A stretch of DNA of 64,000 bases from the sequence record PZ452611.1; one strand, given 5' to 3'. Under the pieces are notes generated by a model, which saw only the letters and a list, made by a program, of their open reading frames with translations, ran no database searches and had not been told where the DNA came from. Shown here piece after piece: positions 4,813 to 58,329 of this stretch. The translations under genes were made by a program, and so were the position numbers. Numbering within the stretch: position 1 is the stretch's first letter; every line of letters starts with the position of its first letter. This DNA is from a phage.

Positions 4813-4823
4813 AAAGAGGGTAA

Positions 4824-5090
4824 ATGAAACTAACTCAGTTTTTATGGGGACTGGTTGCGGCATCTGATGACCCTACGAAAGTGTCCCAATCTAAGCTATG
4901 GTCAAACATAGGCATGGCGGTGATGACTGGGGTGTTTATTCATATGGGGTACAATGATACGCTTCCTGAGTGGTATGCGTGGATATATGCACCTTCAGTA
5001 GCCTGCCCCCAGCTTATTAGCAAATTCATCTCGCTCCGGTGGGGTTGCCAGCACCCTGACCACGTTAAAAACGAAGAGCAAAAAGCTTAA
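4824..5090 (+). CDS. small membrane protein
   Basis: 88-aa ORF with RBS agaggg; hydrophobic segment NIGMAVMTGVFIHMGY; position after fibre gene. Confidence 0.45.
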   Translation: MKLTQFLWGLVAASDDPTKVSQSKLWSNIGMAVMTGVFIHMGYNDTLPEWYAWIYAPSVACPQLISKFISLRWGCQHPDHVKNEEQKA

Positions 5091-5099
5091 GGAGAAATC

Positions 5100-6845
5100 A
5101 TGGCGCAAGACATGACAAGCTTCGAGCAGGCGGTAGATCAAGTAATTGTTGATTCTGAACGTTTGCACTTGATTGTCAACGGTAACGCTGTGGATGAAGT
5201 TGTCGTAGAGGATGGGACCACTATCCCTACGGTACGAAAAGCCATGCTTGACACCCTTTATTTTAAAACGCCACCAATCCCTTGGGCGTATGGTGCATCC
5301 ACAACAGTTTTTAACCAGTTGTATGAGTTTAAAGGGGATACAGGCACTCAGTGGTGGTACGCCCCAGCAGCATCAAAATCTAACCCGGTTAGAATGCCAG
5401 CAGATCCTTCACAATCTCCAAACTGGAGATTATACACCGACTCTGCAGTAATGGCAAAATACTACGCAAAACTTAACAGCCCAAGGTTCGAAGGTGACCC
5501 GAGAGTACCTACACCTCCAATGGACGATAAGTCAGAGTCCATAGCAAACACAGAGTTTGTTGTTGACTATGTTGATAGCATATTTAAAGCCATGGAGGGG
5601 ATGAAAGTTACTGTAGGATCTTTGGTGGTAAAAGGTCTTACAGAACTCGCTAACACTATAGTTGGTGGCACCCTTACCTTACATGGACCTGTTAATGGGG
5701 CAGATTCTACTGCACGCTTTAGGAATCTAATCCTCACGGCAAATACTTCTACACTTACTTTTGCGTGGAGCGATCCTAAGCATGCAGACTGGAGAAGTAC
5801 AGAGCTGCAACCTCATGAAGTGTCCACCCACAGGGTTATAGCTGACACTATAACTTCTGGGAAACCAGTGGCTAATAATAACGATGTGCATTTTGATGGT
5901 CTGGGTAATAACTTTTTTGACTACGTGTACATTCGTGGTAATGCCATGAAGGCAGCAACCGAACCGACATTGCAGGTCGATGGGACCACCAGGGTTAAGA
6001 ACCTTGAGGTGACAGGTACCGTTACAGGGATAACATACTCTGTCGATGGCACCATGATCTACCCTAGCTATATTGAAAGCACGGGTGATGCATTGATAAA
6101 TGGCGATTTGGAGGTTGGCGGGTCTGTAGTTATTCGAGGTACAGCCTCTATCCAAAATATAGCTCTGAATACTCTAAGAGTCAATGAGCGTGCAACTTTT
6201 GAAGGAGAAGGGCTTACAGCTAATAAAGGTACAATTACCGAGCTGACCACCACCACTTTAACTGCAACAACTGCAAACTCTGAAAACTGCAACATTACCA
6301 GAAACTTACAGGTAAATGGAGATGTTAGTTTAAACGCCGCAGGGACTGGCACCACCTACCTTCACAACCTTGAAATATCCGGCACAGTGACTGGGTGGCT
6401 GCCAGACTTCTCTAATGTCAACTTTGTTTGTAATGGCATCAACTCCAGTGGTAAGATAACCACCTCTCAAGAAATTGAGGCGGGTAAAACCATTACTGCC
6501 CCTACTTTCCACGCAGGAAAGGTAGATTTTGATTTAGAGGAGGTTGACGCGTCCAGTGGGACATGGACACCTAACGGACAGGCCAGTATGTATGTTGTCC
6601 ACGCTAAAGGGGATTTTACAATAGGTCAGTGGCCTGGGACATCAGCGGAAGATAAACCTTATCCATTCACTGCAGTTATCTATGTAATTCAGGATGCTGT
6701 AGGTCACAACGTGACTTTGCACGATAAGTATGCTATCCTGTCGGCAACACCTGTTATTAACAACAAGGCTAACAGTGTTACCCTGCTGCAATTAACATAT
6801 TGTGGTGTTGGTGATATCGTAGACGTAGTAATTGCACAACGTTAA
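5100..6845 (+). CDS. tail fibre / tail spike-like protein
   Basis: 581-aa ORF, RBS aaggag; repeated short beta-strand-like motifs (VTGTVTG, EISGTVTG, LxVNG) and Gly/Thr/Asn-rich composition typical of fibre shafts; located in tail module. Confidence 0.55.
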   Translation: MAQDMTSFEQAVDQVIVDSERLHLIVNGNAVDEVVVEDGTTIPTVRKAMLDTLYFKTPPIPWAYGASTTVFNQLYEFKGDTGTQWWYAPAASKSNPVRMPADPSQSPNWRLYTDSAVMAKYYAKLNSPRFEGDPRVPTPPMDDKSESIANTEFVVDYVDSIFKAMEGMKVTVGSLVVKGLTELANTIVGGTLTLHGPVNGADSTARFRNLILTANTSTLTFAWSDPKHADWRSTELQPHEVSTHRVIADTITSGKPVANNNDVHFDGLGNNFFDYVYIRGNAMKAATEPTLQVDGTTRVKNLEVTGTVTGITYSVDGTMIYPSYIESTGDALINGDLEVGGSVVIRGTASIQNIALNTLRVNERATFEGEGLTANKGTITELTTTTLTATTANSENCNITRNLQVNGDVSLNAAGTGTTYLHNLEISGTVTGWLPDFSNVNFVCNGINSSGKITTSQEIEAGKTITAPTFHAGKVDFDLEEVDASSGTWTPNGQASMYVVHAKGDFTIGQWPGTSAEDKPYPFTAVIYVIQDAVGHNVTLHDKYAILSATPVINNKANSVTLLQLTYCGVGDIVDVVIAQR

Positions 6846-45977: not shown

Positions 45978-46303
45978 CAGAGATCATCATTTCAACTGCA
46001 GGGTATGTGTTCCTGACAATCATTGCACTGACTATTTTGGTGACAGTGTATGGGTTTGTTATCCTTCCTATCCTTGAGACATTTAGTTTGTGTCGGTGTT
46101 GGAGAAAAGCTTACGGTCCACAACCATGGAAGGACTGGCCCCACCTAGTGCGCTTAGCGTTCTCTTATGCTTACGATCACTCCAGCAGTGCATGCATAAC
46201 CGGATACCACGCCCACAACTGGAGCTGGGAAGGGTTGAGGAAATGGAATGTTACAAAGACCATACCTCTGCGCATGTACAAACCTAAAAACAAAGACAGC
46301 TGA
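45974..46303 (+). CDS. membrane protein
   Basis: 109-aa ORF; N-terminal two hydrophobic helices (IIISTAGYVFLTIIALTILVTVYGFVILPIL). Confidence 0.45.
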   Translation: MTEIIISTAGYVFLTIIALTILVTVYGFVILPILETFSLCRCWRKAYGPQPWKDWPHLVRLAFSYAYDHSSSACITGYHAHNWSWEGLRKWNVTKTIPLRMYKPKNKDS

Positions 46304-46599
46304 TACTTGAAAATTCCTGGCATATCAAGTATAAGGGGGATTTCTAAAATGGATTTCCTCCTTTTGATATTTCACCGGGCTGGATATTTTAAAATTCTTA
46401 GAAAATCAGAAAATGGATCGAAAACTAAAATGGATTTTTTCAGCACAGGCGCGGAAAATTGTGCCAATCTATCTAGCCGTTTGCACCATATTCGAGATCA
46501 CCGTTCCAGATTTCCCACACATACACACCTCTCCACCATACCTTTCTCCACTCACTCTTAGTGATTTATGACGGAAAACCCATCGCTATCAGTGAGTTG

Positions 46600-46800
46600 C
46601 GGTACAATTTTTCCAGTACTCGATCTACTTTTCATCTCATGGCTTGGATTTTCTGAAAATTTTTCTCGATAAATTTCTCAGTACTCGATCTGTTTTTCGT
46701 TTTCTGAATCGGATTTTCTGGAAATCGTTCCGGAGCTCGACCTGAAATTTTTGGGGACGAAATCGATTTTTCGTTTTCAGAAATGGATTTTTAAAATTTC
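46600..46800. repeat. tandem degenerate ~55-bp direct repeats (3 copies)
   Basis: units containing tt(c)cagtactcgatct...ttttc...ggattttctg(g)aaa repeated head-to-tail; no ORF >60 aa with RBS. Confidence 0.6.
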
Positions 46801-46899
46801 TATATGGGAATATTTTATGGGATACTGTTTTATAGGAAATTGTTACGGAGGGTAATTAGCATGCTAACTAAATTTATGAAATGCGAAAAGTTCTCATTT

Positions 46900-47230
46900 A
46901 GAATTTTGAATGATAATCATTCTCGTTTGCAGAATAACGGGCACCCCCGGTGATTGTCTCCCGGCCCCTACTGCCCCGGCTTGTTATTATAGTAACACAC
47001 AGGACAAAGAAAGCAAGAAGTTTTTGCATAAATTTTTAGACGATAATGATAATCGTTCTCATTTTATGCAGCGCCCATCCCCGGTGGTTGTCTCCCCCGT
47101 CACCGGTGCCTGCCGTCCTTTCGATAGGTATATTGTGCCACCTGGCGGGGCCGCTGTCAACACTTTTCAAAAAATTTTTCTAACCTGATGCGCTAACCGC
47201 TGCAACCTGGCGGGGCCAGCCTGGCAGGAC
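46900..47230. repeat. direct repeats in non-coding region
   Basis: two copies of ~70-bp unit (gataatc(g/a)ttctc(g/a)ttt...cccc(c)ggtg(a/g)ttgtctccc) ~130 bp apart, followed by three acctggcggggcc motifs. Confidence 0.5.
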
Positions 47231-47318
47231 CTAACTGACCAGGTAGGAGAGAATGAAGGCTTATAATCTGGTGGGCCTGTGCTATAGGATAGGTAACAAT
47301 TGAAGAGGAGGTACAAAA

Positions 47319-47501
47319 ATGAAAGGTAATATGATCCCCCTGGAAAATGTAGCGATTAATGACGCTGAGGCTATCGCCCTGGTTGAAAAGGCTATGGCGG
47401 GAGCGTTGGAACATAAAGAAGAGTACGAAAAATGGTGGTTAACCTGGCGGGGGCGGCGGCTGGAGAATTCTGCCCAAAAAATAATTTTAACTAATGGTTG
47501 A
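47319..47501 (+). CDS. hypothetical small protein
   Basis: 60-aa ORF, RBS gaggagg 7 nt upstream; first gene of the early-type cassette region. Confidence 0.45.
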   Translation: MKGNMIPLENVAINDAEAIALVEKAMAGALEHKEEYEKWWLTWRGRRLENSAQKIILTNG

Positions 47502-47527
47502 CAGCTCGGACAGTTCTTGTTATTCTT
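47499..47527 (+). promoter_or_regulatory. sigma70-like promoter
   Basis: TTGACA - 17 nt - TATTCT upstream of the 47581 start. Confidence 0.45.
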
Positions 47528-47580
47528 ATCCTCGCAAGGTGAACAACACCACACTAATTAACAGAGAGGATAAAAAAATC

Positions 47581-47778
47581 ATGAACGCCTACGGAATCAA
47601 AGTACGTCGCAGCACTCGCCAGGTGGTCACCGATCAAATGGTTTGCCAGGTGGACGTAACCATCAACAACGGGCAAGGCCTTTATAAATTTCGTCGCGGT
47701 CATAGCTATACCCTGCAACAGCTTAATCGTTGCGCCCTGACAAAAGGTCAGATCAACCACTGGTTTAATAAAAAATAA
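47581..47778 (+). CDS. hypothetical small basic protein
   Basis: ORF 47494-47778; internal ATG (M30) preceded by agagagg and A-rich spacer, downstream of promoter. Confidence 0.45.
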   Translation: MNAYGIKVRRSTRQVVTDQMVCQVDVTINNGQGLYKFRRGHSYTLQQLNRCALTKGQINHWFNKK

Positions 47779-47782
47779 GTAT

Positions 47783-47811
47783 TGACATATAGTCCGACAC
47801 CAAATACACTA
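47783..47811 (+). promoter_or_regulatory. sigma70-like promoter
   Basis: TTGACA - 17 nt - TACACT. Confidence 0.5.
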
Positions 47812-47842
47812 AAAGCACAAAAGACACTAAGAGGATAAAATC

Positions 47843-48241
47843 ATGAAAACCACTACCTTTAATTTTGATAATGCAGACTTTTCTTTTTCTGATGTCAAGA
47901 ACTGCCGCCGTGATCGTGGATTTTACAAGGCTTATAATCTGGTGGGCCTGGACGATGACAATAATTTGCACGAAGTAGCTGAGATCCGGTATTATGCCGC
48001 CGCCAGTGGGAACACTTACTACTGCGTTTTTTGGATACACGACAACAAGAACAATAAGTACGGCTATACTGGCGGCAAGGCAAGCGGTCACGGTTATGAT
48101 AAAGCTAACGCAGCACTTGAGAGCGCATTAAATGCCATGGGGATCACTGCCGACGGCTGGATCTACGAAGAAGAGTTTTTGTCGGCACTTGCTGACCACC
48201 TAGGCTATAAAAAGCACATTGTAACATGCGCCCACGAATAA
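47843..48241 (+). CDS. hypothetical protein
   Basis: 132-aa ORF, conserved UTR context aagaggataaaatcATG. Confidence 0.5.
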   Translation: MKTTTFNFDNADFSFSDVKNCRRDRGFYKAYNLVGLDDDNNLHEVAEIRYYAAASGNTYYCVFWIHDNKNNKYGYTGGKASGHGYDKANAALESALNAMGITADGWIYEEEFLSALADHLGYKKHIVTCAHE

Positions 48242-48247
48242 AAATCA

Positions 48248-48275
48248 TTGACACGCTGCAAAATTTAAGTAAACT
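48248..48275 (+). promoter_or_regulatory. sigma70-like promoter
   Basis: TTGACA - 16 nt - TAAACT, followed by 5'-UTR hairpin GGCGGG-aatgttt-CCCGCC. Confidence 0.5.
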
Positions 48276-48323
48276 AGACACAAAAGGCGGGAATGTTTCC
48301 CGCCAGCACAAAGGAAAAAGATC

Positions 48324-48728
48324 ATGAATAAGAACGTACGCCGCATCATGAACGAGTTGGCAAACGATGAAAAAATTATTGACATGCATTTGATCAACAT
48401 TTGCCGCCGTTGTGTAACATATAACAACCGCGCCGCAAAAGCGCGTGAGATGAACGCAAAAGGCACCTTAAAGCCATTCCAGGTGGTGGTAAAGGCCATT
48501 AAAGATGTAACTAATACGGCAAACCAGGTACAGGGGAACACCAACGAGAGTACCAATATTGATCCGGCTTACATCATGAAACGGATCCGGACCTGCAAGA
48601 ACAAAGAGCAAGTGTATAATGTCATAGACTGGTTGGATTCTATGGGCGATGTGGTTTACAATAGGTTTTCTGCAGCTATCGAGATCCAGCTTGACAGGTT
48701 GGACGGTAAAGTACTAAAAACTTACTAA
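48324..48728 (+). CDS. hypothetical protein
   Basis: 134-aa ORF. Confidence 0.5.
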   Translation: MNKNVRRIMNELANDEKIIDMHLINICRRCVTYNNRAAKAREMNAKGTLKPFQVVVKAIKDVTNTANQVQGNTNESTNIDPAYIMKRIRTCKNKEQVYNVIDWLDSMGDVVYNRFSAAIEIQLDRLDGKVLKTY

Positions 48729-48808
48729 GTTTATTTTTAGATGGCCTTGACTCCAGGGCCATCGATAAAGTAAACTAATCCCAGTTAAGCGAAAAAGGAG
48801 GCTTGAAG

Positions 48809-48928
48809 ATGAGCACTACACGCCAACACACAAAGGTAACGATTATCGTTTGCATCATTGGTTACATCCTGGCGCAAATGTTGATGGGTAGCGCCAATGA
48901 TTTCGCAAAATTTTTCTTAGACTTTTAA
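48809..48928 (+). CDS. small hydrophobic peptide (39 aa)
   Basis: not in >=60-aa ORF track; ATG preceded by aaaaaggagg; sequence MSTTRQHTKVTIIVCIIGYILAQMLMGSANDFAKFFLDF has one predicted TM helix; coordinates +/-1. Confidence 0.3.
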   Translation: MSTTRQHTKVTIIVCIIGYILAQMLMGSANDFAKFFLDF

Positions 48929-48956
48929 TTGACAAGCTAACTTAAATCAGTATAAT
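48929..48956 (+). promoter_or_regulatory. sigma70 consensus promoter
   Basis: TTGACA - 16 nt - TATAAT. Confidence 0.55.
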
Positions 48957-49008
48957 ACTAAGCACATAAACGGGAAAACTTCCCAGAACACCAAAAGGAG
49001 AAAACATT

Positions 49009-49359
49009 ATGAATACTTCCATCACTATGACCGCCGAAGAAAAAGCCCTGCAGATCGCCGCTCTGAAAAAACAGATTGCAGAACTTGAAGACAAGATCGA
49101 CAATTTTGAAATCGACGAAGACAAATACGACGATAAATATGATGAATGGTTGGACGAGATCTACGGCGAAATTATGATCGGAAACATTTCTTTTCTTCCG
49201 TCGCGTATCCTCAAGGAGCTAGATCCTATCGCTTACCGCTGCGGATTTAGCGACTACATCGACAGCCTGGATATTGAGGACGATGAAGAATACCAGGAAT
49301 TACAGACAGAGCTTGAAGAAGTGAAAGAAGAGCTTGCAGAACTGGAAGAAAACGAGTAA
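49009..49359 (+). CDS. highly acidic coiled-coil protein
   Basis: 116-aa ORF; very high Asp/Glu content (EDDEEYQELQTELEEVKEELAELEENE). Confidence 0.5.
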   Translation: MNTSITMTAEEKALQIAALKKQIAELEDKIDNFEIDEDKYDDKYDEWLDEIYGEIMIGNISFLPSRILKELDPIAYRCGFSDYIDSLDIEDDEEYQELQTELEEVKEELAELEENE

Positions 49360-49448
49360 ATTTATTTTTAGATGGCCTTGACTTCAGGGCCATCAATAAA
49401 GTAAACTTTAGACTGTTAACACTTAACCAATACAGAGGAGTTAAAACC

Positions 49449-49694
49449 ATGGCCGCACTAATTACCAAATATTATGCCCCTACCAACACCAAAAGCGCCC
49501 GTATCATGGTAAAAGGCTTCGGACGTAAAAAGGTGTACACCTGGGATTATTCCCTAGACATGGAAGACAACTACACCAACGCGATGACAGATTTTATTAA
49601 TGAGCTGAACACGCGGATCTTGACAAATTATAAAATTACCGATATTGCCTATATAGGGGAAGGCGGGATCTGTTTTGTCGGTATCGTCAAATAA
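49449..49694 (+). CDS. hypothetical protein
   Basis: 81-aa ORF, RBS agaggag. Confidence 0.5.
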   Translation: MAALITKYYAPTNTKSARIMVKGFGRKKVYTWDYSLDMEDNYTNAMTDFINELNTRILTNYKITDIAYIGEGGICFVGIVK

Positions 49695-49770
49695 ACTGTT
49701 TTTTCGGTGGTCCTGGTAGCAGGGCCATCTATAAAGATAGTTTATCAGCACAATGAAAGGAGAAAGTAAC

Positions 49771-50124
49771 ATGATCAGCGGGGCAAGTTTTATTATTGGC
49801 GCTATTGCTACGGCTTTAATTGTAAACAAGATCCAATCCAAAAACGAAAAAGAGAGCAACGCGCTTACAGAATACCCATTTTGGGTATTCAACGACAATG
49901 AAGACTACATTATCAAGTACAAGGATGAGAAAGGGGACCAGGTAACACCGAGACCGATCCCAGCTTACAAGATGCAAGAAACATTATACCGCTTAAAGGC
50001 TGGCGGCGCAAAAATCGTAGACTTTTGGGGATATGATTGCAAGGATCAGGAGACTATAAAACGTCGTATCCGGGCGATTCAGGCAAATATTGAGATCAGT
50101 AAAGGGGGCGTTTATGAAAATTAA
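49771..50124 (+). CDS. membrane-anchored protein
   Basis: ORF 49753-50124; ATG at 49771 preceded by aaaggagaaagtaac; N-terminal TM helix ISGASFIIGAIATALIV. Confidence 0.5.
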   Translation: MISGASFIIGAIATALIVNKIQSKNEKESNALTEYPFWVFNDNEDYIIKYKDEKGDQVTPRPIPAYKMQETLYRLKAGGAKIVDFWGYDCKDQETIKRRIRAIQANIEISKGGVYEN

Positions 50125-50311
50125 TTTCGAAAAAATTGTAAAGCGCCCCCACGATTCCGAAGAGCTGCCGGAACGCCGCCAGCGTAACAATAAACTGAAT
50201 AAACCGAAAAGGTTCGGGAAGATCTGGAGAAATCACTATGATCGCAAATTACCGGGCCTGCTTTTGGAACGTGAACGACAGGCGGAACGATACCGCCACA
50301 AAGACAAATAG
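50114..50311 (+). CDS. small basic protein
   Basis: ORF 50090-50311; ATG at 50114 preceded by aaaggggg; Arg/Lys-rich. Confidence 0.4.
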   Translation: MKINFEKIVKRPHDSEELPERRQRNNKLNKPKRFGKIWRNHYDRKLPGLLLERERQAERYRHKDK

Positions 50312-50319
50312 CAACCAAC

Positions 50320-50350
50320 GCCCCGCCATTGTGCGGGGCTTTTTATTTCT
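50320..50350 (+). terminator. putative intrinsic terminator
   Basis: GCCCCGC-cattgt-GCGGGGC hairpin followed by TTTTTATTTCT. Confidence 0.6.
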
Positions 50351-50492
50351 ATCCCGCCGATAGCGCCCCTGGTTGGCCCTACAAGCGCCATAAAGGCCCC
50401 TACCTATGCAATCCCCTTTCTTAACCTGAAAACAGCGTCTAGGGCCGTTTTATGGCGTTAAAAATATTATTGACAGTAATTCTATTTAAAGC

Positions 50493-50521
50493 TTGACACC
50501 TTGGGATAGTCCGGATATACT
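50493..50521 (+). promoter_or_regulatory. sigma70-like promoter
   Basis: TTGACA - 17 nt - TATACT; a second TTGACA lies 23 nt upstream. Confidence 0.5.
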
Positions 50522-50556
50522 AACCACATCAAAGCAAGAAGGAAGGAGTAAACGCC

Positions 50557-50817
50557 ATGCGTAAATTAAAAAATTTTGATAAAGTAGATGTTGTCCTGAA
50601 TAATTTTTACTACTGCAATAATAAAGCCGTTTGGTGGCGTGATAGTTCCACCGATAAAGTTAAAGCGCGCTTTCTCCAAGGGCACTGGCAAGGCCGCCCA
50701 GTGATTAAAATCTCGGGGCAATTGGTAGCGTTTAAAAATTGCCGCCGTGTTGATGACGTTGAAGAGATTCTAAACATTTTACGCCACAATAATTTAAAAA
50801 ATAGTGTTGACAAGTAA
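50557..50817 (+). CDS. hypothetical protein
   Basis: 86-aa ORF, RBS aaggaagga. Confidence 0.5.
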   Translation: MRKLKNFDKVDVVLNNFYYCNNKAVWWRDSSTDKVKARFLQGHWQGRPVIKISGQLVAFKNCRRVDDVEEILNILRHNNLKNSVDK

Positions 50818-50834
50818 GTCTCAATAAGTATACT
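50807..50834 (+). promoter_or_regulatory. sigma70-like promoter
   Basis: TTGACA - 16 nt - TATACT followed by hairpin GGCGGG-aaaactt-CCCGCC at ~50845-50863. Confidence 0.5.
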
Positions 50835-50891
50835 TAAACACACAGGCGGGAAAACTTCCCGCCACTAACAAAGAAAATAGGAGAAAATATC

Positions 50892-51515
50892 ATGACCACC
50901 GTTAACATTACCACAGGTTACAATTTAGCTTTCGACGTGCTGACCGACGAACAAAAAGAAAAAGCCGTTGAAATGGTCCGAGAAAGAGAAGAACACAGCG
51001 GGGATAACTTTTTTGCAGAAAGTGTAATTGAAGACTATAAAGAATATGTCTTTCCAGAGTATGGCCTTGAAGATACCAAGGTACATTGGTCCGGCTTTTG
51101 GTGCCAGGGTGACGGCGCGTCAATCAGTGCGGAAAACGTGGATTTAGAAAAATTCTTGCGTAAAGTAAAGGCCCTGACCAAGTTCCGATCAATTCGTCAC
51201 TTGTTCGGCACAATGCACGATGGCGAGCTATCCGCAAGTGTTGAGCGTGATCCATATAGCCGCTATAGTCACGAAAACACTGTAAGCGGGTACATCGATA
51301 CTACATGGCTAGACCTGACCGCCAAACAAGAAAATAAAGTGGAAGATCTGGAAGAGCTGATCACCGAGACGGTACGGGAGCTATCCCGCAAGGTTTACGT
51401 AGACCTGGAGGAGGCCTATCTAGAACAGTTCACTACCGAAAACCTGATCGGCCTTATTGAGGCCAATGATTGGCGGTTTGATGTGGATGAATATGGAGAG
51501 ATGAGTTTTTCATAA
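50892..51515 (+). CDS. hypothetical acidic protein
   Basis: 207-aa ORF; acidic; conserved-looking WSGFWCQGDGAS segment; no family recognised. Confidence 0.5.
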   Translation: MTTVNITTGYNLAFDVLTDEQKEKAVEMVREREEHSGDNFFAESVIEDYKEYVFPEYGLEDTKVHWSGFWCQGDGASISAENVDLEKFLRKVKALTKFRSIRHLFGTMHDGELSASVERDPYSRYSHENTVSGYIDTTWLDLTAKQENKVEDLEELITETVRELSRKVYVDLEEAYLEQFTTENLIGLIEANDWRFDVDEYGEMSFS

Positions 51516-51523
51516 ATAAAGTG

Positions 51524-51551
51524 TTGCAATAATCTAAAAACCTGCTATATT
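51524..51551 (+). promoter_or_regulatory. sigma70-like promoter
   Basis: TTGCAA - 16 nt - TATATT followed by hairpin GGGGCAA-gacgtt-TGCCCC. Confidence 0.45.
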
Positions 51552-51604
51552 AAAACTCAAGGGGCAAGACGTTTGCCCCCACACAAAACAAAGAGGAAAA
51601 CATC

Positions 51605-51985
51605 ATGAAAAACACTACCAAAGCTATTTACACCGTTATGTTTAACCTGGTTACCTTTCGCGAGGATATGAAAGATCTTCCGCGTGAAACAGTGTGCGAC
51701 CATATCGAAAACTATCGCAAACTAATCAAAGAGTTGCCTTTAAAACGTGATCAGTATGCGGCTAACGCCATGCTTAATGCCATGATCAAAAAGATGATCC
51801 AGTGTGATTTAATTCTAGCCTATGATTATGCGGGTGGTCGTTTTGCAGTATACAATCAGCCCGTGCCCGGTATGGGCACCATCGAAGAATTGCACGCGCT
51901 CAATCTAAAACAAGATGTGTGGGATAGTATGCCCCGCGTGGTGGTGTGGGCAGAAAGCGGGAAGATTTACGGCGATAGTTTTTAA
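51605..51985 (+). CDS. hypothetical protein
   Basis: 126-aa ORF with conserved UTR context aaagaggaaaacatcATG. Confidence 0.5.
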   Translation: MKNTTKAIYTVMFNLVTFREDMKDLPRETVCDHIENYRKLIKELPLKRDQYAANAMLNAMIKKMIQCDLILAYDYAGGRFAVYNQPVPGMGTIEELHALNLKQDVWDSMPRVVVWAESGKIYGDSF

Positions 51986-52049
51986 TCAGGTAACAGGCGG
52001 CATATTTGCCGCCTTATTGTTAAACAAAACTGCAAAAGAGGTACATAGA

Positions 52050-52421
52050 ATGGAATTTATTATTTTGGCTGTATTGGTTGCCTTGTTTAACGCCTGGATC
52101 GCTGGCAAGATGGGCAGATCCGCCTTTTTATGGTTTATTATATCTATTTTCCTGGGGGTGGTTGCAACTATTGTATTGGTTATCCTTGCAATTGTTGACA
52201 AGGGGAATAATAGAAAGGGTAAAGTATTTTCAGACCTGTACGACGCTCAAACGTTTGTCAACGCCTATTATAGTGATCTTCCAGTCTCCCTACGCTGCAG
52301 CTTGGCACAACAGGTTTTTGATGAGGCTAAAACCAGAGATCAAGCCCATGAGATATGTTTAACTGAGGCGGATCGCCTATTTGAGAGGAATAGAAAATAT
52401 GTGGGCCAACCGTTTAAATAA
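52050..52421 (+). CDS. membrane protein (two TM helices)
   Basis: ORF 51915-52421; ATG at 52050 preceded by aaaagagg; MEFIILAVLVALFNAWIAG and FLWFIISIFLGVVATIVLVILAIV hydrophobic helices. Confidence 0.5.
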   Translation: MEFIILAVLVALFNAWIAGKMGRSAFLWFIISIFLGVVATIVLVILAIVDKGNNRKGKVFSDLYDAQTFVNAYYSDLPVSLRCSLAQQVFDEAKTRDQAHEICLTEADRLFERNRKYVGQPFK

Positions 52422-52644
52422 TGCCACGTTAATTAATCCCTTTAGTGAAGATTTGAAGCCAGCCGCCTGGCGTGACGGATTCAATAACGAACGCTTTATT
52501 TTCAGGCCTGATCTTGAGGAATTTTATAACAATGGATCGAACAACAGCGGAGATAATTTTTCTTGTGGTGTGTGTCGTGATAGGACTCCTGGGGGCCATT
52601 GTAGATCGCGTCACTACTACCAGAAGGAAAGGGGGAGACGATGA
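52399..52644 (+). CDS. hypothetical protein (frame ambiguous)
   Basis: ORF 52381-52644; ATG at 52399 with gagagg RBS; overlaps alternative-frame 41-aa TM peptide 52532-52657; low-complexity composition. Confidence 0.3.
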   Translation: MWANRLNNATLINPFSEDLKPAAWRDGFNNERFIFRPDLEEFYNNGSNNSGDNFSCGVCRDRTPGGHCRSRHYYQKERGRR

Positions 52645-52900
52645 CAACCAAGGATAAGCCATGCACCGATAAGGTGCGCCGCGTTATGGTATGGCTTGAG
52701 ATTATCGCCCTTGAAATATTGCTAGGCGTAGGGATGTACTTTATCGCTGTAAGTAACTAAGAACGGCCCCCGATCATGGGGGCCTATCTTTTAAAAAAAA
52801 ATTTTCTTCCGGGGTGTTGCAATCCGGTCCGGAATGTGGATAATAACAATCAACGGGGAGCTAATCCCCACCACCACAAAAACCAGAAAGGAGAAACAAA

Positions 52901-53101
52901 ATGAGCAACAATATCCGCGTTATTAACTTCAAAAAAGAAGAAAAAATTGCCGTGCTGATTGACGGTCAAGAAATCTTCAAGGGCGACTATGAAGATCATC
53001 AAACGGCGATTAGTATCACTCGCGTGATTGGTTACCATAATTTCTACCCCCAAGGCGCTGAGGCAGCAGTTAAACGAATCAAAGAGATTGTAGGCCTGTA
53101 A
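52901..53101 (+). CDS. hypothetical protein
   Basis: 66-aa ORF, conserved UTR context gaaaggagaaacaaaATG. Confidence 0.5.
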   Translation: MSNNIRVINFKKEEKIAVLIDGQEIFKGDYEDHQTAISITRVIGYHNFYPQGAEAAVKRIKEIVGL

Positions 53102-53192
53102 AATTTATTTTTAGATGGCCTTGACTTCAGGGCCATCAATAAAGTAAATTTAAACCCTGTTAAAATAATCAGTGCAAAAAGGAGTAATGATC

Positions 53193-53492
53193 ATGTTTAT
53201 ACCCGCCAATAATCTTTATTTCTTTGATGGTCAGATCGTAGACGGTGTGGAAGTGGAGATCACTGGGTGCCCTGGTGGTCAGGCTATGACTTTTCGGAAT
53301 AATGCCTTTGATGATTCTCGTATCGTTATGAGAATGGAAGTTACAAAGCTGGACGACAAGAAAACGCTCATTGACTATTCCGTGAAAGATCATCCAGACT
53401 ACCACATGATCTATGGTGATTTGTGTATTGTTGACCGTGACAAGGTGGGCGGCATTGTGATCGCTATTGTGAACGATGTTTTCTCTGAATAA
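53193..53492 (+). CDS. hypothetical protein
   Basis: ORF 53172-53492; ATG at 53193 8 nt after aaaaggag. Confidence 0.5.
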   Translation: MFIPANNLYFFDGQIVDGVEVEITGCPGGQAMTFRNNAFDDSRIVMRMEVTKLDDKKTLIDYSVKDHPDYHMIYGDLCIVDRDKVGGIVIAIVNDVFSE

Positions 53493-53550
53493 TTCCGGCA
53501 AATGATGCAAAATAAGGCCCCTAGCAGGGCCTGCAGCGATATAATCACAT

Positions 53551-53584
53551 AAAGGCTATGCGGTTGCATGGCCTTTATTATTTT
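53551..53584 (+). terminator. putative intrinsic terminator
   Basis: AAAGGCTATGC-ggtt-GCATGGCCTTT hairpin followed by ATTATTTT. Confidence 0.5.
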
Positions 53585-53716
53585 AGCGTTACAGCGTCCC
53601 CAAGGCGCTTAAAAAATTTTTAAAGAAGTACTTGCATCAAGTCCTACAATATGGATAATAGGACGTGTCAGGGGGGCGGCCCCCAATCATTAACCGGATA
53701 GATAGGAGTTAAAATC

Positions 53717-54001
53717 ATGGCTATTGTCACCGTTGGCGATGTAGTGGAAATGGAAGCAAAATACTTAAAAGCGGGTATGCATATCCTACGGAATGATCAA
53801 GAATTGTTATTAACGATGGTAGACTATAATCCCGGCCAGGATTATCCAAGCATCGACATACTTTTTGAGTATGTTGATGAAGAATTGAAAGAGGATGAGG
53901 CTTATCAGGGTGAATTCTGCAATTTCTTTTGCCCTGATGAGGTTGTAAAAGTTATCTATCAACCTGGCGTACCTTTCCCGCTGCACGCTATCAATAAATA
54001 A
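53717..54001 (+). CDS. hypothetical protein
   Basis: 94-aa ORF, RBS ataggag. Confidence 0.5.
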   Translation: MAIVTVGDVVEMEAKYLKAGMHILRNDQELLLTMVDYNPGQDYPSIDILFEYVDEELKEDEAYQGEFCNFFCPDEVVKVIYQPGVPFPLHAINK

Positions 54002-54055
54002 ACCTGGCGGGGCCGAAAAGGCCCCAATTATGAAAATAAAGAGAGGTAAATCATC

Positions 54056-54289
54056 ATGATGGAACAAATTAAACGCGCTGAGGCTATTAATGGCAATGTG
54101 ATCTATTTTGTCAGCAAAAACGAAAAAGGCGTACCATATGCGGCGGTAATAGTACAACCTGACGGCGATTATTGGTTTACTGTATACGGATCTTATTCTT
54201 TCGGGCGTCCGGTTCATGATAGAATTTTGAAAGTAGCGAATCCGACCGGGAAAAATATCACAGCAGAAAAATTTTTTGAAAATAGTTGA
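54056..54289 (+). CDS. hypothetical protein
   Basis: 77-aa ORF, RBS agagagg. Confidence 0.5.
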   Translation: MMEQIKRAEAINGNVIYFVSKNEKGVPYAAVIVQPDGDYWFTVYGSYSFGRPVHDRILKVANPTGKNITAEKFFENS

Positions 54290-54313
54290 CATGACCATAT
54301 AAGACTGTAATAT
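54286..54313 (+). promoter_or_regulatory. sigma70-like promoter
   Basis: TTGACA - 16 nt - TAATAT followed by hairpin GGGGGGC-aacaa-GCCCC. Confidence 0.45.
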
Positions 54314-54365
54314 ATAAATCAAAGGGGGGCAACAAGCCCCACCAACCACAAAGAGGATAAAAATC

Positions 54366-54545
54366 ATGGCTATTATTGCAAAGACTGAGATCGTAGGCTT
54401 AGATTCTATTCTCCTCGCATATGAGGAAGCTATAGAAATGTATGTGGTTTCCTATGGTGAATATATCCGTGAATATAAATCTATTGATCTGGCTTTTGAA
54501 TGTTATATTCGCCAGGTTAATAAAGCGTACGATGATTATCGTTAA
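54366..54545 (+). CDS. hypothetical small protein (59 aa)
   Basis: not in ORF track (just under 60 aa); conserved UTR context aaagaggataaaaatcATG; coordinates +/-1. Confidence 0.4.
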   Translation: MAIIAKTEIVGLDSILLAYEEAIEMYVVSYGEYIREYKSIDLAFECYIRQVNKAYDDYR

Positions 54546-54635
54546 AATAGCTTGACAACAAACAACCATCTAACAAAGCATAATACATAAGGCGGTGGAA
54601 TGGTCCGCCACCTGGAACAAGAAGAGGAAAACAAG

Positions 54636-54740
54636 ATGAAACAGAAATTAATTGATGCGGTGATCCTGGTTATTGCCCTGGGTATTGGCCTGATTGCAAC
54701 CATGTCTAATATGATCTTGTCTTCCAACGGTATCGGGTGA
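54636..54740 (+). CDS. small hydrophobic peptide (34 aa)
   Basis: ATG preceded by agaagaggaaaacaag; MKQKLIDAVILVIALGIGLIATMSNMILSSNGIG; coordinates approximate. Confidence 0.3.
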   Translation: MKQKLIDAVILVIALGIGLIATMSNMILSSNGIG

Positions 54741-54749
54741 GGTTGGCAA

Positions 54750-54965
54750 ATGATCACTAACAAAACAGGCAAAACAGAATTTTTACGCAACTTACAGATC
54801 GGCAAGCCTGAGATCTGGTATTGCACTAAAACACCACGTGACGAAATGAAAGACTTCACCGCCACGCTGCAACGGGTAAAGATATCCATCACGCAGAAAA
54901 AGGCCTTATTAGTGGTGGAAGGTGAGATCCCCCAAACCGTTGTTATAGTTGAGCGTACAGCATAG
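54750..54965 (+). CDS. hypothetical protein
   Basis: 71-aa ORF. Confidence 0.45.
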   Translation: MITNKTGKTEFLRNLQIGKPEIWYCTKTPRDEMKDFTATLQRVKISITQKKALLVVEGEIPQTVVIVERTA

Positions 54966-55056
54966 TTTAATTTATACCGATACCCGAAAATTAACCAACA
55001 AAGCATAAACAGGCGGTTACCGCCGCCTTAAACGTAGCAGAAAGAGGATAGACACA

Positions 55057-55341
55057 ATGAAAAAGATGATCGCAGTGGTTGCCCTGGTTGTTGGACTTAA
55101 TGCGCCTGTAATGGCTAAAGAGCTGGCAAAAGAGGTTAATCTAACGGATATTCATGCCGTCAATCAAATCGGGGTTACTTATCGCTTATGCCTTGCCGCT
55201 AAAACTTTTAATGACGGTACAACAGAGTACTACGGATTCGAGGGTATCCGGTGCGGTGAGCTTGCTCGCGACCTTAAGGAAGATTCAGACCTGGAGGATC
55301 TGCCCATAACCGTGAACGGGAAAACTTACGTGAACCGTTAA
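55057..55341 (+). CDS. secreted/periplasmic small protein (signal peptide)
   Basis: 94-aa ORF; N-terminal MKKMIAVVALVVGLNAPVMA signal-peptide-like segment; RBS aagagga. Confidence 0.5.
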   Translation: MKKMIAVVALVVGLNAPVMAKELAKEVNLTDIHAVNQIGVTYRLCLAAKTFNDGTTEYYGFEGIRCGELARDLKEDSDLEDLPITVNGKTYVNR

Positions 55342-55343
55342 CC

Positions 55344-55478
55344 ATGAAAAAGATAATCATCACCTTGGGGATTGTGGTGGCAATATTGGCGCTCTTCCCC
55401 CTTATGGTTAGGTATGTGCTGATCAGTGTTATTCTAGTGGTCAGCGATCTGGTGTTATATATTAACTCATTGTTTTAG
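55344..55478 (+). CDS. small hydrophobic peptide (44 aa)
   Basis: ATG directly after stop of upstream gene; MKKIIITLGIVVAILALFPLMVRYVLISVILVVSDLVLYINSLF; coordinates approximate. Confidence 0.3.
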   Translation: MKKIIITLGIVVAILALFPLMVRYVLISVILVVSDLVLYINSLF

Positions 55479-55486
55479 GTGCGATA

Positions 55487-55678
55487 ATGACCACTGATGA
55501 AGCTGTAAAAGTGTTGGCGGTATTGAGATATCATAATCAAACAAAGGTTATAAACGATCCTGATTATGTTGACTCAAAGCGTGAAGATGAGACATTGACC
55601 GCAATATGGATTATTCAAGAATTGCTAAAGCGCATGACAGAGAAAAACCGACCGGACTACATAGGCGAAAAAATATAA
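55487..55678 (+). CDS. hypothetical protein
   Basis: 63-aa ORF. Confidence 0.45.
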   Translation: MTTDEAVKVLAVLRYHNQTKVINDPDYVDSKREDETLTAIWIIQELLKRMTEKNRPDYIGEKI

Positions 55679-55694
55679 TATTTATAAACTACAA

Positions 55695-55726
55695 AACAGG
55701 GCTTGCAATGGTCCTGTTTTTTGTTA
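55695..55726 (+). terminator. putative intrinsic terminator
   Basis: AACAGG...CCTGTT hairpin followed by TTTTTTGTT. Confidence 0.45.
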
Positions 55727-55805
55727 TACTTATTCCACGGCAGGCACCTGGCGACGGGGGGAGACAATCACCGGGGGGTGCCTGTCATATAAGAACTATA
55801 AAAAC

Positions 55806-55834
55806 CGTTGACATCTGCCAGGGGGTGGGGTAAC
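55806..55834 (+). promoter_or_regulatory. sigma70-like promoter
   Basis: TTGACA - 17 nt - TAACAT followed by hairpin GGGCA-aaag-TGCCC. Confidence 0.45.
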
Positions 55835-55890
55835 ATTTATCTTGAAGGGGCAAAAGTGCCCACACAACAACCAGAAGAGAGGAAAACATT

Positions 55891-56163
55891 ATGTCAAGCT
55901 GGATTAATCAAGAAGTCGAATCACGTTTTAATGCTATTTGGGATCTCATCGAAAAAGAGGACGGAACATCAAGCCCTTACCTCAATAATCTTGAATTCCA
56001 TTTTGTGGAAGCGATGAACGCAGAACATGATCACGAAGGTGGTGCGGACGAGTTCGCTAAAAGGTATGGCTTCAACAATGCCAACGAAATGATCGAGGCG
56101 GTTGTACTCCAGGCTGAGGAAGATTATCAATTAAAAACGCTTGAATTCTGCCGCCGCAAGTAA
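55891..56163 (+). CDS. hypothetical acidic protein
   Basis: 90-aa ORF, conserved UTR context. Confidence 0.5.
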   Translation: MSSWINQEVESRFNAIWDLIEKEDGTSSPYLNNLEFHFVEAMNAEHDHEGGADEFAKRYGFNNANEMIEAVVLQAEEDYQLKTLEFCRRK

Positions 56164-56223
56164 TAAGATAATGACACGGGCCAAAAGGCCCACTAATCAG
56201 AACCACACAAAGAGAGAAAGAAA

Positions 56224-56442
56224 ATGACAACCCGTAAAATTAAAGTTGTTTGCATTGAATCTACTGGGGGCGCTTTTGTAGTTGGTCAGGAATATAATGC
56301 GGTTTTAATGGGTACGGATTGGAAGGTTAAAGGCCTTAATGGTTACGAGTACGGCACTACTTGCGGCTTGCGTGGTCGAATCGGATACGTGAGTTTAGAC
56401 AATAAAGAAAAATTTGTTTTCGACACCCTTGTGAGTAAATAG
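56224..56442 (+). CDS. hypothetical protein
   Basis: 72-aa ORF preceded by hairpin GGGCC-aaaa-GGCCC and agagagaaagaaaATG. Confidence 0.5.
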   Translation: MTTRKIKVVCIESTGGAFVVGQEYNAVLMGTDWKVKGLNGYEYGTTCGLRGRIGYVSLDNKEKFVFDTLVSK

Positions 56443-56519
56443 CATGAATTGCTAAAGACTGATCTGCGAACTGCTGTATTATCAACTAATCAAAACGAAC
56501 CACATAAAGAGGAAACATC

Positions 56520-56783
56520 ATGAAACGTCTGGATCAGCTTAAATTAGTTCAGTACATGGCCTACAGAATTCTTGAAGTCCAAAAAGGTAGCAAAAAAGAG
56601 GTTTGCGAGAAAGCTTATAAGATCTTTACCCGCAAAAAAGATGACTGGATGCTACGCCAGACCAAAAAGGCTGACATCTTGGGGTACCTGGAAGAAGAGA
56701 TCCGACTTGAAGAGCAAGAAGAGATCCGCCGCAGTGAGGCAGATTATCAGGCAGCTTGGGAAAACTGGATGAGTAACAAATAA
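56520..56783 (+). CDS. hypothetical protein
   Basis: 87-aa ORF, conserved UTR context aaagaggaaacatcATG. Confidence 0.5.
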   Translation: MKRLDQLKLVQYMAYRILEVQKGSKKEVCEKAYKIFTRKKDDWMLRQTKKADILGYLEEEIRLEEQEEIRRSEADYQAAWENWMSNK

Positions 56784-56852
56784 TACAACAAGTTGCACGA
56801 TCAGGGGGGCAATAAAGCCCCTTGATCACATAAAAATTATGCTATCCTTGGT

Positions 56853-56881
56853 TGACAAGGATCGGCAGTTTTGCTATATTC
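56853..56881 (+). promoter_or_regulatory. sigma70-like promoter
   Basis: TTGACA - 17 nt - TATATT upstream of ORF 56930. Confidence 0.5.
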
Positions 56882-56929
56882 TTTTTTGAAGGGAAGTTGT
56901 AAGAAAATTAACTAAGAGGTAAAAACACC

Positions 56930-57349
56930 ATGAACATTAAATCTAATAATCCGGCATATAGCTTTGATAACGCTTTTTGTCACGGTCCGGCGGCGAAAGG
57001 ATTCGAAATCGATGGTAAACTAATTATTGTCAATGTTGACGGGGAAGAGGTTGCAGTATATCCGGTGGCAGACGTTAAAAGCCGTTTGCAATGCCGCATG
57101 GATGTTACCGCCTACCAGCTTGATCCGGTCCGCATAGTTGCCCTGGTCCTGGAGGAAGAGATCAAAGCCATGCATCATAGCAATAAGTTTATCGGTGACG
57201 CGCAAGATAATATGAAGGTATGCCGCTATAAAGTTAATGAAGTGCTTAAAGAATACGGCTTCAAAGATCTGATGATCAAGCGTGATGAAAAATTCCGTTA
57301 TCGTAACGACCTGGCAAATCGAATCTATGAAATATACGAATCATTATAA
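56930..57349 (+). CDS. hypothetical protein
   Basis: 139-aa ORF, RBS aagagg. Confidence 0.5.
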   Translation: MNIKSNNPAYSFDNAFCHGPAAKGFEIDGKLIIVNVDGEEVAVYPVADVKSRLQCRMDVTAYQLDPVRIVALVLEEEIKAMHHSNKFIGDAQDNMKVCRYKVNEVLKEYGFKDLMIKRDEKFRYRNDLANRIYEIYESL

Positions 57350-57367
57350 TTTCTTAACTAAACTATC

Positions 57368-57396
57368 AGGGGCTTTAAAAGGCCCCTTTCTTTTGT
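57368..57396 (+). terminator. putative intrinsic terminator ending the early-type cluster
   Basis: AGGGGC-tttaaaa-GGCCCCT hairpin followed by TTCTTTTG. Confidence 0.6.
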
Positions 57397-58329
57397 CTGT
57401 ATTTCTCCTACCACAAACGGCCCAGCCTGGCAAGTGGAATAATTGACTAGCCAGCAATTACCAACACTGTACAAATATACATATAAAATAACTATTGCAT
57501 AATCTTTCATCTTGTGGTAGCAGGGCCATTTTTACACGTTTTCCTTCCAAAATTGCACGTAATGCAGCTATTGCATAAAATTTAACCTGATGCACATCTT
57601 CAATAGCTTGTCAACAACTAAAAATCTTTATAAGTCATACACTTACATAACCACAAAAGCGTGTTCTACGTGAAAAATCGAGTATAACTATAGCCGCCAG
57701 ATCTCAGAATTTACGTACGCTCACCATTCTATAGTCTGCTAAGTATTTATTCCAACCATAGAATAACAGAATAGTCAATACCTGCATAAAATAATTATTC
57801 GTGTAAACTGCATAACATAAATCAGCCGGGGTGTCAACATTTTTCGTAAACGGCTCGAAATTATCACTGTGAGCTATCATAAACAGAGAAATCTTTAGTC
57901 GTCTAATGTTTACTGTACGTTACTATACTAACTGGAATCATTAGATGACTAATAAAAAGATAAGAAATCATTAACAATGCAATTGTTTTATTCATAACAA
58001 TAAGGCAACTATGCAAACGAATGGCATGGCGCGACGGAGTCGCGACATAATATAAAAGCAGTAACCATCACCCCCGTGATAGTTTGTCTGCAAACTATTA
58101 ATCAGATCATAGTTGCCTTGTATTTAGTTAATCATGACATAAACTCAGGCATAGCCTTCGTCTCGAGGATGTTAACAAGCAAGGCAACTATAGATCTTCT
58201 AATAGTTGCCCTGCTTTTATATTATGTCATAGAAACACCCGAAGGGGTGACCAAAGGTCACCTGGCATAGCCAGTGAAATATTGTAAACAAGTTAATTAT
58301 TATCATGCAAACGAATGGCATGGCTTATC

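Follow-up and report, generated by a model that had tools for sequence, protein, structure and literature searches.

A repeated hairpin and promoter-like element between small early genes of Escherichia phage rV5

The early region of Escherichia phage rV5 contains a repeated intergenic element of about 50 nucleotides in which sigma-70 promoter-like boxes lie within the sequence of an RNA hairpin. The copies described here are found in a 64,000-nucleotide stretch of phage DNA (sequence record PZ452611.1; hereafter the window). A 6-kb query around them is 100% identical, with three small gaps, to Escherichia phage V5/rV5 (DQ832317, 137,947 bp; genus Vequintavirus) and 90-95% identical to more than 110 further Vequintavirus records. 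Relative to DQ832317, the window runs in reverse-complement orientation and is circularly permuted. The element copies sit among small early genes, in a long block (ORF194 to ORF177) that is read rightward and forms part of a transcription unit, "10-1-238-164", that Kropinski et al. proposed (PMC3606486). The proteins encoded on either side of them have PHROG matches only to families of unknown function.

A pattern match finds the 24-nucleotide core of the element, GATGGCCTTGACTYCAGGGCCATC, at 48740, 49371 and 53114 on the + strand, where shuffled sequences are expected to yield none. These are the three near-identical copies that an earlier note had picked out by reading the sequence. Their full 47-nucleotide units (48730-48776, 49361-49407 and 53104-53150) have zero to two differences from the consensus; the positions first given hold for copies 1 and 2, and copy 3 lies one nucleotide further to the right. 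A divergent copy suspected near 49700 proves to be a fourth member at 49693-49743, with 69% identity to copy 2 and a covariance-model match of 71.7 bits. All four copies are in gene orientation and together span 4.4 kb among ORF194-ORF178. Their placement directly after stop codons and ahead of the next gene was also correctly described: each starts 1-3 nucleotides past a stop codon (that of ORF194, ORF192 or ORF179), and the next start codon lies 35-45 nucleotides beyond its end. The copies and their parts are as follows.

48725-48780, + strand: element copy 1, between ORF194 and ORF193 (pattern match; RNA fold -26.1 kcal/mol, z = -8.2; covariance model 77.8 bits)
48728-48737/48767-48776, + strand: lower stem of copy 1, with upper stem 48740-48749/48754-48763 and loop 48750-48753 (RNA fold)
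48747-48776, + strand: promoter-like boxes of copy 1, TTGACT, 18-nucleotide spacer, TAAACT (consensus scan, 9/12)
49356-49411, + strand: element copy 2, between ORF192 and ORF191 (pattern match; -20.9 kcal/mol, z = -5.8; covariance model 74.8 bits)
49357-49368/49398-49410, + strand: lower stem of copy 2, with upper stem 49371-49380/49385-49394 and promoter-like boxes 49378-49383 and 49402-49407 (fold, consensus scan)
49691-49746, + strand: copy 4, a relative with the hairpin but no TTGAC -35 box, lying between ORF191 and ORF190 (fold in two tiers, -27 kcal/mol, z = -7.7)
49692-49703/49733-49744, + strand: lower stem of copy 4, with upper stem 49706-49715/49720-49729 (RNA fold)
53099-53154, + strand: element copy 3, between ORF179 and the ORF178/177 gene (pattern match; -23.6 kcal/mol, z = -6.6; covariance model 77.9 bits)
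53101-53111/53141-53151, + strand: lower stem of copy 3, with upper stem 53114-53123/53128-53137 and promoter-like boxes 53121-53126 and 53145-53150 (TAAATT) (fold, consensus scan)

A fuzzy search of the complete rV5 genome and a covariance-model search return no members beyond these four sites. The family covariance model was run on the window, on 50-100 kb of rV5 and on the Justusliebigvirus loci. A further divergent copy proposed near 57510 is not a member: it matches copy 4 only over 15 nucleotides (TGGTAGCAGGGCCAT) and forms no hairpin (z = +1.6). This fragment, at 57514-57530, is identical to the loop and 3' arm of copy 4 and is located in a 2.6-kb non-coding stretch, with terminator t164 about 130 nucleotides before it. 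Murica, ime and contig L014 have kept it too, again without the partner arm and without a fold, and it may have been left behind by recombination long ago.

Databases treat this one element in contradictory ways. The published rV5 lists of 33 promoters and 20 terminators include none of the copies. In the annotation of Gotham, the orthologues of copies 2 and 3 are each a 'promoter' (PhagePromoter), and in that of Murica the orthologues of copies 3 and 4 are each a 'terminator'.

In the sense RNA of every copy, the predicted fold has two tiers. The upper stem, GAUGGCCUUG/CAGGGCCAUC, is 10 bp long, takes in the TTG of the -35 box, contains a single U·G pair and is capped by a 4-nucleotide apical loop, ACUY. 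A 2x3-nucleotide internal loop separates it from an A-U-rich lower stem of 10-12 bp, in which the T-rich tract holding the upstream stop codon pairs with the A-rich tract holding the -10 box. The 7-bp stem of the earlier note is real, but it is only the core of this 22-bp structure, which encloses the whole promoter-like sequence. Sense-strand folding energies range from -20.9 to -27 kcal/mol (z = -5.8 to -8.2), as against only -10 to -16 kcal/mol for the antisense RNA; the element folded as single-stranded DNA reaches only -8 to -10 kcal/mol. No relevant match to the Rfam covariance models is found in 46000-58000 at E <= 1.

The hairpin is conserved independently of the promoter, because it persists where the boxes are lost or mis-spaced. 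Copy 4 retains the full fold (-27 kcal/mol) despite having the apical sequence CCUGGUAGCAGG and no TTGAC. In copy 1 of contig L019, indels put the boxes 20 nucleotides apart, yet the RNA still folds with -22.6 kcal/mol.

The pairing can be followed in an alignment of 28 distinct copies taken from rV5, six GenBank relatives, Justusliebigvirus KKE7M and six metagenomic Vequintavirus contigs. Imposing the structure on these copies leaves 94.6% of cells paired, a share that drops to 36-55% if the 3' partners are shifted by one to three columns. Pairing in the upper helix is complete (100%); variation occurs at three pairs, each time in one partner alone and always through G·U (A-U/G·U, C-G/U·G and U·G/C-G). 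The lower helix has changes on both sides at five pairs. One of these is G-C in 13 copies, A-U in nine and G-U in three, another is U-A in 19 and C-G in four, and another is A-U in 20 and U-A in seven. Such conservation of pairing supports the fold, short of proving it. Because substitutions follow a G·U-only pattern and the two strands fold so differently, the sequences point to a sense-strand RNA structure rather than a DNA palindrome that is read by a protein, and the hairpin appears to be under selection.

The promoter-like boxes, TTGACT and TAAACT (TAAATT in copy 3) with an 18-nucleotide spacer, are as first described. In copies 1-3, TTTATTTTTA precedes TTGACT-N18-TAAAYT; the AT-rich tract contains the upstream stop codon, and its T-tract is positioned like an UP element. 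Across relatives, TTGAC is constant in these copies, and the sixth base of the -35 box (T, A or G) and the base after it vary. The -10 context AAGTAAACT is common to the element and the published promoter P194, whose TTGACA box is perfect, and is also found in a Justusliebigvirus promoter. TTGACT-N18-TAAAYT is a plausible, moderate sigma-70 promoter as judged from its sequence, and promoter function of copies 1-3 is likely. Copy 4 has no -35 box, and inspection by eye reveals no candidate above 3/6; the start of ORF190 is about 45 nucleotides downstream.

A second class of promoter-stem-loop module is present in the same region. At least six sigma-70-like promoters in 48248-54340 have a GC-rich hairpin, for example GGCGGGAAAACTTCCCGCC, 7-15 nucleotides past the -10 box, and so in the 5' untranslated region (UTR) of the message. 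Examples are located at 48286-48304, 48971-48985, 50845-50863, 51560-51580, 52851-52873 and 54326-54340. The same layout occurs in Justusliebigvirus KKE7M and pEC-M2929.

The stem of the element is followed by AAUAAAG or UAUAAAG and not by a U-tract, and a terminator scan calls none at any of the four copies on either strand. A canonical (Rho-independent) terminator was considered and is rejected because the U-tract is missing. Each hairpin nevertheless lies at the 3' end of a single-gene unit with an upstream promoter of its own, which makes a 3'-end-forming role plausible. By this analysis the most likely role of the hairpin is in processing or stabilization of RNA, rather than in canonical termination.

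The shape of the hairpin suggests one such process. An idealized E. coli RNase III substrate has 22 bp with a central internal loop, and internal loops in these substrates lead to single-strand cuts that leave stabilizing 3' hairpins (PMC3867540). The rV5 element has this shape, being an irregular hairpin of about 20-22 bp, or two helical turns, with a near-central internal loop and a conserved sense-strand structure that begins at a stop codon. When folded, the early intergenic regions of phage T7 that carry RNase III signals (R0.3, R0.5, R1, R1.1 and R1.3) adopt the same shape. They too are intergenic hairpins within short early messages that the host polymerase makes, start at a stop codon, combine an upper stem of about 10 bp containing G·U with an internal loop and a lower stem, and adjoin promoters, including the minor E. 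coli promoters B and C. The two sets share no sequence similarity. The T7 promoters are beside the hairpin and the putative rV5 promoter is inside it, and the internal loop is 2x3 in rV5 versus about 4x5 in T7. RNase III cleavage is proven in T7 and hypothetical in rV5. An RNase III processing step is put forward here only tentatively.

Recombination junctions between related phages fall in the element, as the cassette shuffling proposed in the earlier note would predict. The cassette between copies 1 and 2 has been lost in some relatives, and its P192-ORF192 part has been transferred.

48777-49360, + strand: cassette between copies 1 and 2, comprising ORF193 (48809-48928), P192 (48929-48956) and ORF192 (49009-49359)
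48929-48956, + strand: promoter P192, TTGACA-N16-TATAAT (rV5 paper, Table S4; 12/12 consensus), the left junction of the KKE7M ORF192 cassette

Together with one element copy, this cassette forms a 631-bp unit. The products of ORF193 and ORF192 match only PHROG families without an assigned function. At least five phage genomes or contigs are without the unit. ECP26, phiWec189, ime and contig L014 have ORF194, a single element and then ORF191, and precisely 631 bp (ORF193, P192 and ORF192) are gone. The remaining element is a hybrid, flanked upstream as copy 1 is and downstream as copy 2 is. BLAST finds the same unbroken junction in ECP32, while most other records align in two segments separated by about 625 bp. 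Four cassette-less genomes were compared and form no group of their own, each being nearest to a cassette-bearing genome (for instance phiWec189 to L077 with 98.7% identity and ime to L022 with 98.5% downstream), and the flanks on either side of their element have different nearest relatives. By these similarities, the cassette-less state arose at least twice or passed between lineages.

One element is found outside the genus, in phage KKE7M (Justusliebigvirus, subfamily Stephanstirmvirinae), where it terminates a transferred cassette. A 468-bp segment of KKE7M that is 95.9% identical to FFH2 extends from the P192 -35 box through ORF192 to the end of the element. This segment is missing from sister phages, and pEC-M2929 has an unrelated 264-nucleotide gene in its place. 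In a three-way alignment of KKE7M, pEC-M2929 and FFH2, the left junction lies within the shared sequence ATTGACAAGATAACTAAAATC and the right junction within the shared sequence AATAAAGTAAA, where the element has its -10 box. KKE7M and rV5 have several further small early genes in common, at 74-94% identity (KKE7M 4757-5090, 6274-6467 and 12117-12396, compared to ORF184, ORF174 and ORF173/172). The alignments suggest repeated early-gene exchange between the Justusliebigvirus and Vequintavirus subfamilies.

Indels are numerous in the region, and others join at Shine-Dalgarno-ATG boxes or -35 boxes. In general, then, conserved expression signals serve as linkers in this region, the element being the longest of them. 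Indels at L001 positions of about 8476, 11500 and 12630 (window ~50475, ~53500 and ~54630) were compared with FFH2, Murica and L019. One regional indel joins at AAGAGGAAAACAnnATGAAA, which spans a ribosome binding site and start codon, and in L019 the joints of a roughly 540-bp insertion are ATTGACA -35 boxes. Some genomes have a 351-nucleotide gene behind the first gene downstream of copy 3 and others do not, with no obvious shared signal at its junction.

The element has no match in 5,426 complete E. coli genomes, and is not host-derived. A pattern search of IMG/VR returns three Vequintavirus stretches only. A metagenome scan in which the 24-nucleotide core was left free gives 66 loci, mostly chance matches in AT-rich sequence, and the real element appears in Vequintavirus-like contigs only.

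These properties resemble those of the promoter-early stem-loops (PeSLs) of T4-like phages, known from RB49/phi1, PST/T4 and nt-1/KVP40 (Arbiol et al. 2010, PMC2839356; Comeau et al. 2014, PMC4122927). PeSLs are likewise repeated intergenic motifs of about 50 nucleotides in a hyperplastic early region of small genes whose functions are unknown (PMC2839356, PMC4122927). The stop codon of the upstream gene lies within an AT-rich tract that is followed by sigma-70-like -35 and -10 boxes and a stem-loop, and in one described subclass the stem-loop overlaps the -35 box. Indel and gene-swap junctions between close relatives also fall in the motif. Judged by sequence, the rV5 element has most of the features that define a PeSL, namely an intergenic repeat, an AT-rich sigma-70-like promoter (without a -35 box in copy 4), a stem-loop and junctions within the motif. 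It is not related in sequence to the described PeSLs and does not reside in a T4-like genome: a blastn search with the element returns Vequintavirus records and KKE7M only, and no T4-like phage. The rV5 element is found in Vequintavirinae, with one copy in Stephanstirmvirinae, and there are four copies here versus dozens of PeSLs. PeSLs have a short stem of a G-run and a C-run, rather than a covarying two-tier hairpin of 22 bp around the whole promoter, and the rV5 promoter (TTGACT-N18-TAAACT, 9/12) is weaker than those of RB49 PeSLs. Promoter and terminator activity and mini-circles have been shown experimentally for PeSLs, whereas the rV5 element is known here from its sequence.

We interpret the element as a PeSL-like composite module of the rV5 early region that serves as a promoter, an RNA 3'-end or processing hairpin and a portable recombination site, and we give this interpretation a probability of roughly 55%. 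As duplex DNA, copies 1-3 would act as sigma-70 early promoters with a UP-like T-rich tract, TTGAC, an 18-nucleotide spacer and TAAAYT. The predicted start is about 7 nucleotides beyond the -10 box, such that the transcripts of the module itself would be made without the hairpin. RNA that reads through from the promoter of the preceding gene would fold the module into the 22-bp two-tier hairpin beginning at the stop codon. This hairpin would mark the 3' end of the short upstream message, and might be processed or stabilized like the T7 early hairpins that are cut by RNase III. Because its near-identical direct copies are at least 47 bp long and its promoter boxes are shared with other phages, the module could serve as a substrate for homologous recombination, which would delete, insert or exchange small genes. 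The same bases would then determine both where one message stops and where the following one begins, and PeSL-type shuffling would extend beyond T4-like phages and be tied to RNA processing instead of termination. In its most specific form, in which 50 nucleotides carry a sigma-70 promoter, an RNase III-type hairpin and the homology block that moves cassettes from Vequintavirinae to Stephanstirmvirinae, this proposal is speculative. The earlier note was largely right about the promoter and the shuffling, and the element does sit at cassette boundaries. Its account of the hairpin was too simple. Of the combined terminator/promoter that it envisaged, the promoter-like half agrees with the consensus scan and with the PhagePromoter calls for two Gotham copies, and the canonical terminator is probably wrong.

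Several observations weigh against the composite module. The boxes match the sigma-70 consensus at only 9/12 positions with a suboptimal 18-nucleotide spacer, chance alone yields many matches as good (28.7 of the 40 found are expected), and the element is absent from the published rV5 promoters. The T-rich and A-rich tracts of the lower stem pair partly through composition alone. The aligned copies are related, such that independent covariation events are few (chiefly the contrast of copies 1-3 with copy 4, and a few lineage-specific changes) and the shuffle test on the alignment overstates significance. In Gotham, a 5-nucleotide deletion destroys both the hairpin and the promoter spacing of copy 1, the only copy to have lost the fold, and ORF193 is retained, so at least one lineage can do without copy 1. 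For the T7 comparison, the RNase III site positions follow Dunn and Studier (1983); the record table is without them.

The decay of Gotham copy 1, and the presence of only four copies in 138 kb, would also be expected if the copies were neutral leftovers of a duplicated intergenic segment, with a functionless hairpin and functionless promoter boxes. However, blastn finds all four sites kept at orthologous positions across 121 records. In alignments of five to nine relatives, per-column conservation is 0.95-1.00 in the element versus 0.71-0.87 in the adjacent 5' UTR, and compensatory and wobble changes maintain the pairing. Neutrality is thus very improbable, and the elements do not appear to be mere remnants of shuffling, as the earlier note had it, since selection seems to keep their pairing in related copies. 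The same wobble changes bear on the suggestion that the palindrome is bound by protein. GATGGCC-N10-GGCCATC could be an operator at which a dimeric phage or host protein, seated across the -35 box, switches the early promoters off or on. Its arms are invariant in copies 1-3 of about 15 genomes and contigs (GenBank and metagenomic), bar one C-to-T change in FFH2, whereas the loop varies, and the repeat brackets the -35 box in a typical repressor position. Terminator palindromes may, according to one preprint, double as transcription-factor sites (10.64898/2026.08.19.745784). Yet copy 4 and FFH2 copy 1 alter the 5' arm only (A to G, C to T and T to C), which keeps G·U pairing in RNA and breaks the dyad in DNA. 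In addition, the sense and antisense folds are 5-17 kcal/mol apart, covariation continues through the 10-12-bp A-U stem beyond the palindrome, the half-site centres are 17 bp apart and not whole helical turns, and no candidate regulator has been identified. The operator is probably a mistaken interpretation, and we assign it little credence.

A closer relative of the composite module is the classical view of PeSLs, in which the stem-loop terminates or attenuates transcription to insulate each small gene and the embedded promoter restarts it. PeSL stem-loops without obvious U-tracts reduce downstream lacZ expression about as rrnB T1 does (PMC2839356), the rV5 hairpins end one-gene units that have their own upstream promoters, and the Murica annotators marked copies 3 and 4 as terminators. 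Promoter-coupled terminators, whose stem-loop DNA supplies the -35 box with the -10 box just downstream, also between tandem genes, are reported to be widespread in bacteria (Fletcher et al. 2026, bioRxiv 10.64898/2026.08.19.745784). The rV5 element shares this coincidence of -35 box and stem-loop. However, those are true intrinsic terminators with a T-tract between the hairpin and the -10 box, where rV5 has AATAAAG, its own T-rich tract being upstream of the stem. The terminator scan is negative on both strands, the 22-bp stem with its central internal loop exceeds the 7-13-bp terminator stems called in the region, and efficient termination at copy 4, which is without a -35 box, would silence ORF190-187. 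This version seems unlikely, though not strongly so. Alternatively, the hairpin or a cruciform might be an active mobility signal, specifically targeted by recombination or by a structure-specific nuclease such as a phage EndoVII-like enzyme. Arbiol et al. raised this possibility for the GGGC/GCCC stems of PeSLs (PMC2839356), rV5 encodes two EndoVII-like proteins (ORF97 and ORF213), and the cassette-less state arose repeatedly or spread between lineages. But the KKE7M junctions are in ordinary promoter boxes outside the stem (the P192 -35 box and spacer, and AATAAAGTAAA), and the use of Shine-Dalgarno-ATG or -35 boxes by other indels fits general homologous recombination on short homologies. 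The weak folding of the single-stranded DNA and a G·U pattern that indicates RNA further make a dedicated nuclease target improbable.

Two other systems share single aspects of the composite module. Lambdoid morons are small accessory genes that also carry their own expression signals, but no repeated linker bounds them. Integron attC sites are also hairpin-forming cassette boundaries. They require an integrase and fold as single-stranded DNA, whereas the rV5 junctions vary, have no linked integrase and show RNA-type pairing. In the literature, neither a usable Vequintavirus transcript map nor an earlier description of the element was found.

PeSL-type cassettes have so far been described only in T4-like phages. 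A counterpart in rV5-like phages that is unrelated in sequence suggests a general way for large lytic phages to shuffle accessory genes while leaving expression intact. This is backed by junctions seen directly, both of deletion and of transfer from one subfamily to another. Small accessory genes of phages are often host-takeover or anti-defence genes. The element also marks safe points of insertion or deletion for the engineering of Vequintavirus therapeutic phages, and its conserved 22-bp RNA hairpin provides a concrete, testable hypothesis where annotations contradict one another.

Some minor observations concern the surrounding sequence and its records. Three direct repeats of about 47-60 nucleotides, 65-74 nucleotides apart and 74-75% identical, occupy 46606-46791 in a non-coding gap of about 350 nucleotides between ORF199 and ORF198; Tandem Repeats Finder reports short sub-repeats only. 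The window and DQ832317 are a few single-base indels apart. At 53193-53492 the window has a single continuous gene of 99 codons, as in relatives (a 300-nucleotide coding sequence), where DQ832317 has overlapping ORF178 and ORF177. The DQ832317 annotation also includes a 285-nucleotide 'terminator' that coincides with ORF196 (L001 5492-5776) and another terminator inside ORF195 (L001 6116-6161), both of which are probably annotation slips. This E. coli phage region is matched at more than 93% identity by seventeen records labelled 'Campylobacter phage' (MG0656xx), whose hosts are probably mislabelled. The PLSDB 'plasmid' CP057073.1 (137,565 bp) carries all three near-identical element copies and is probably a phage genome that was filed as a plasmid.

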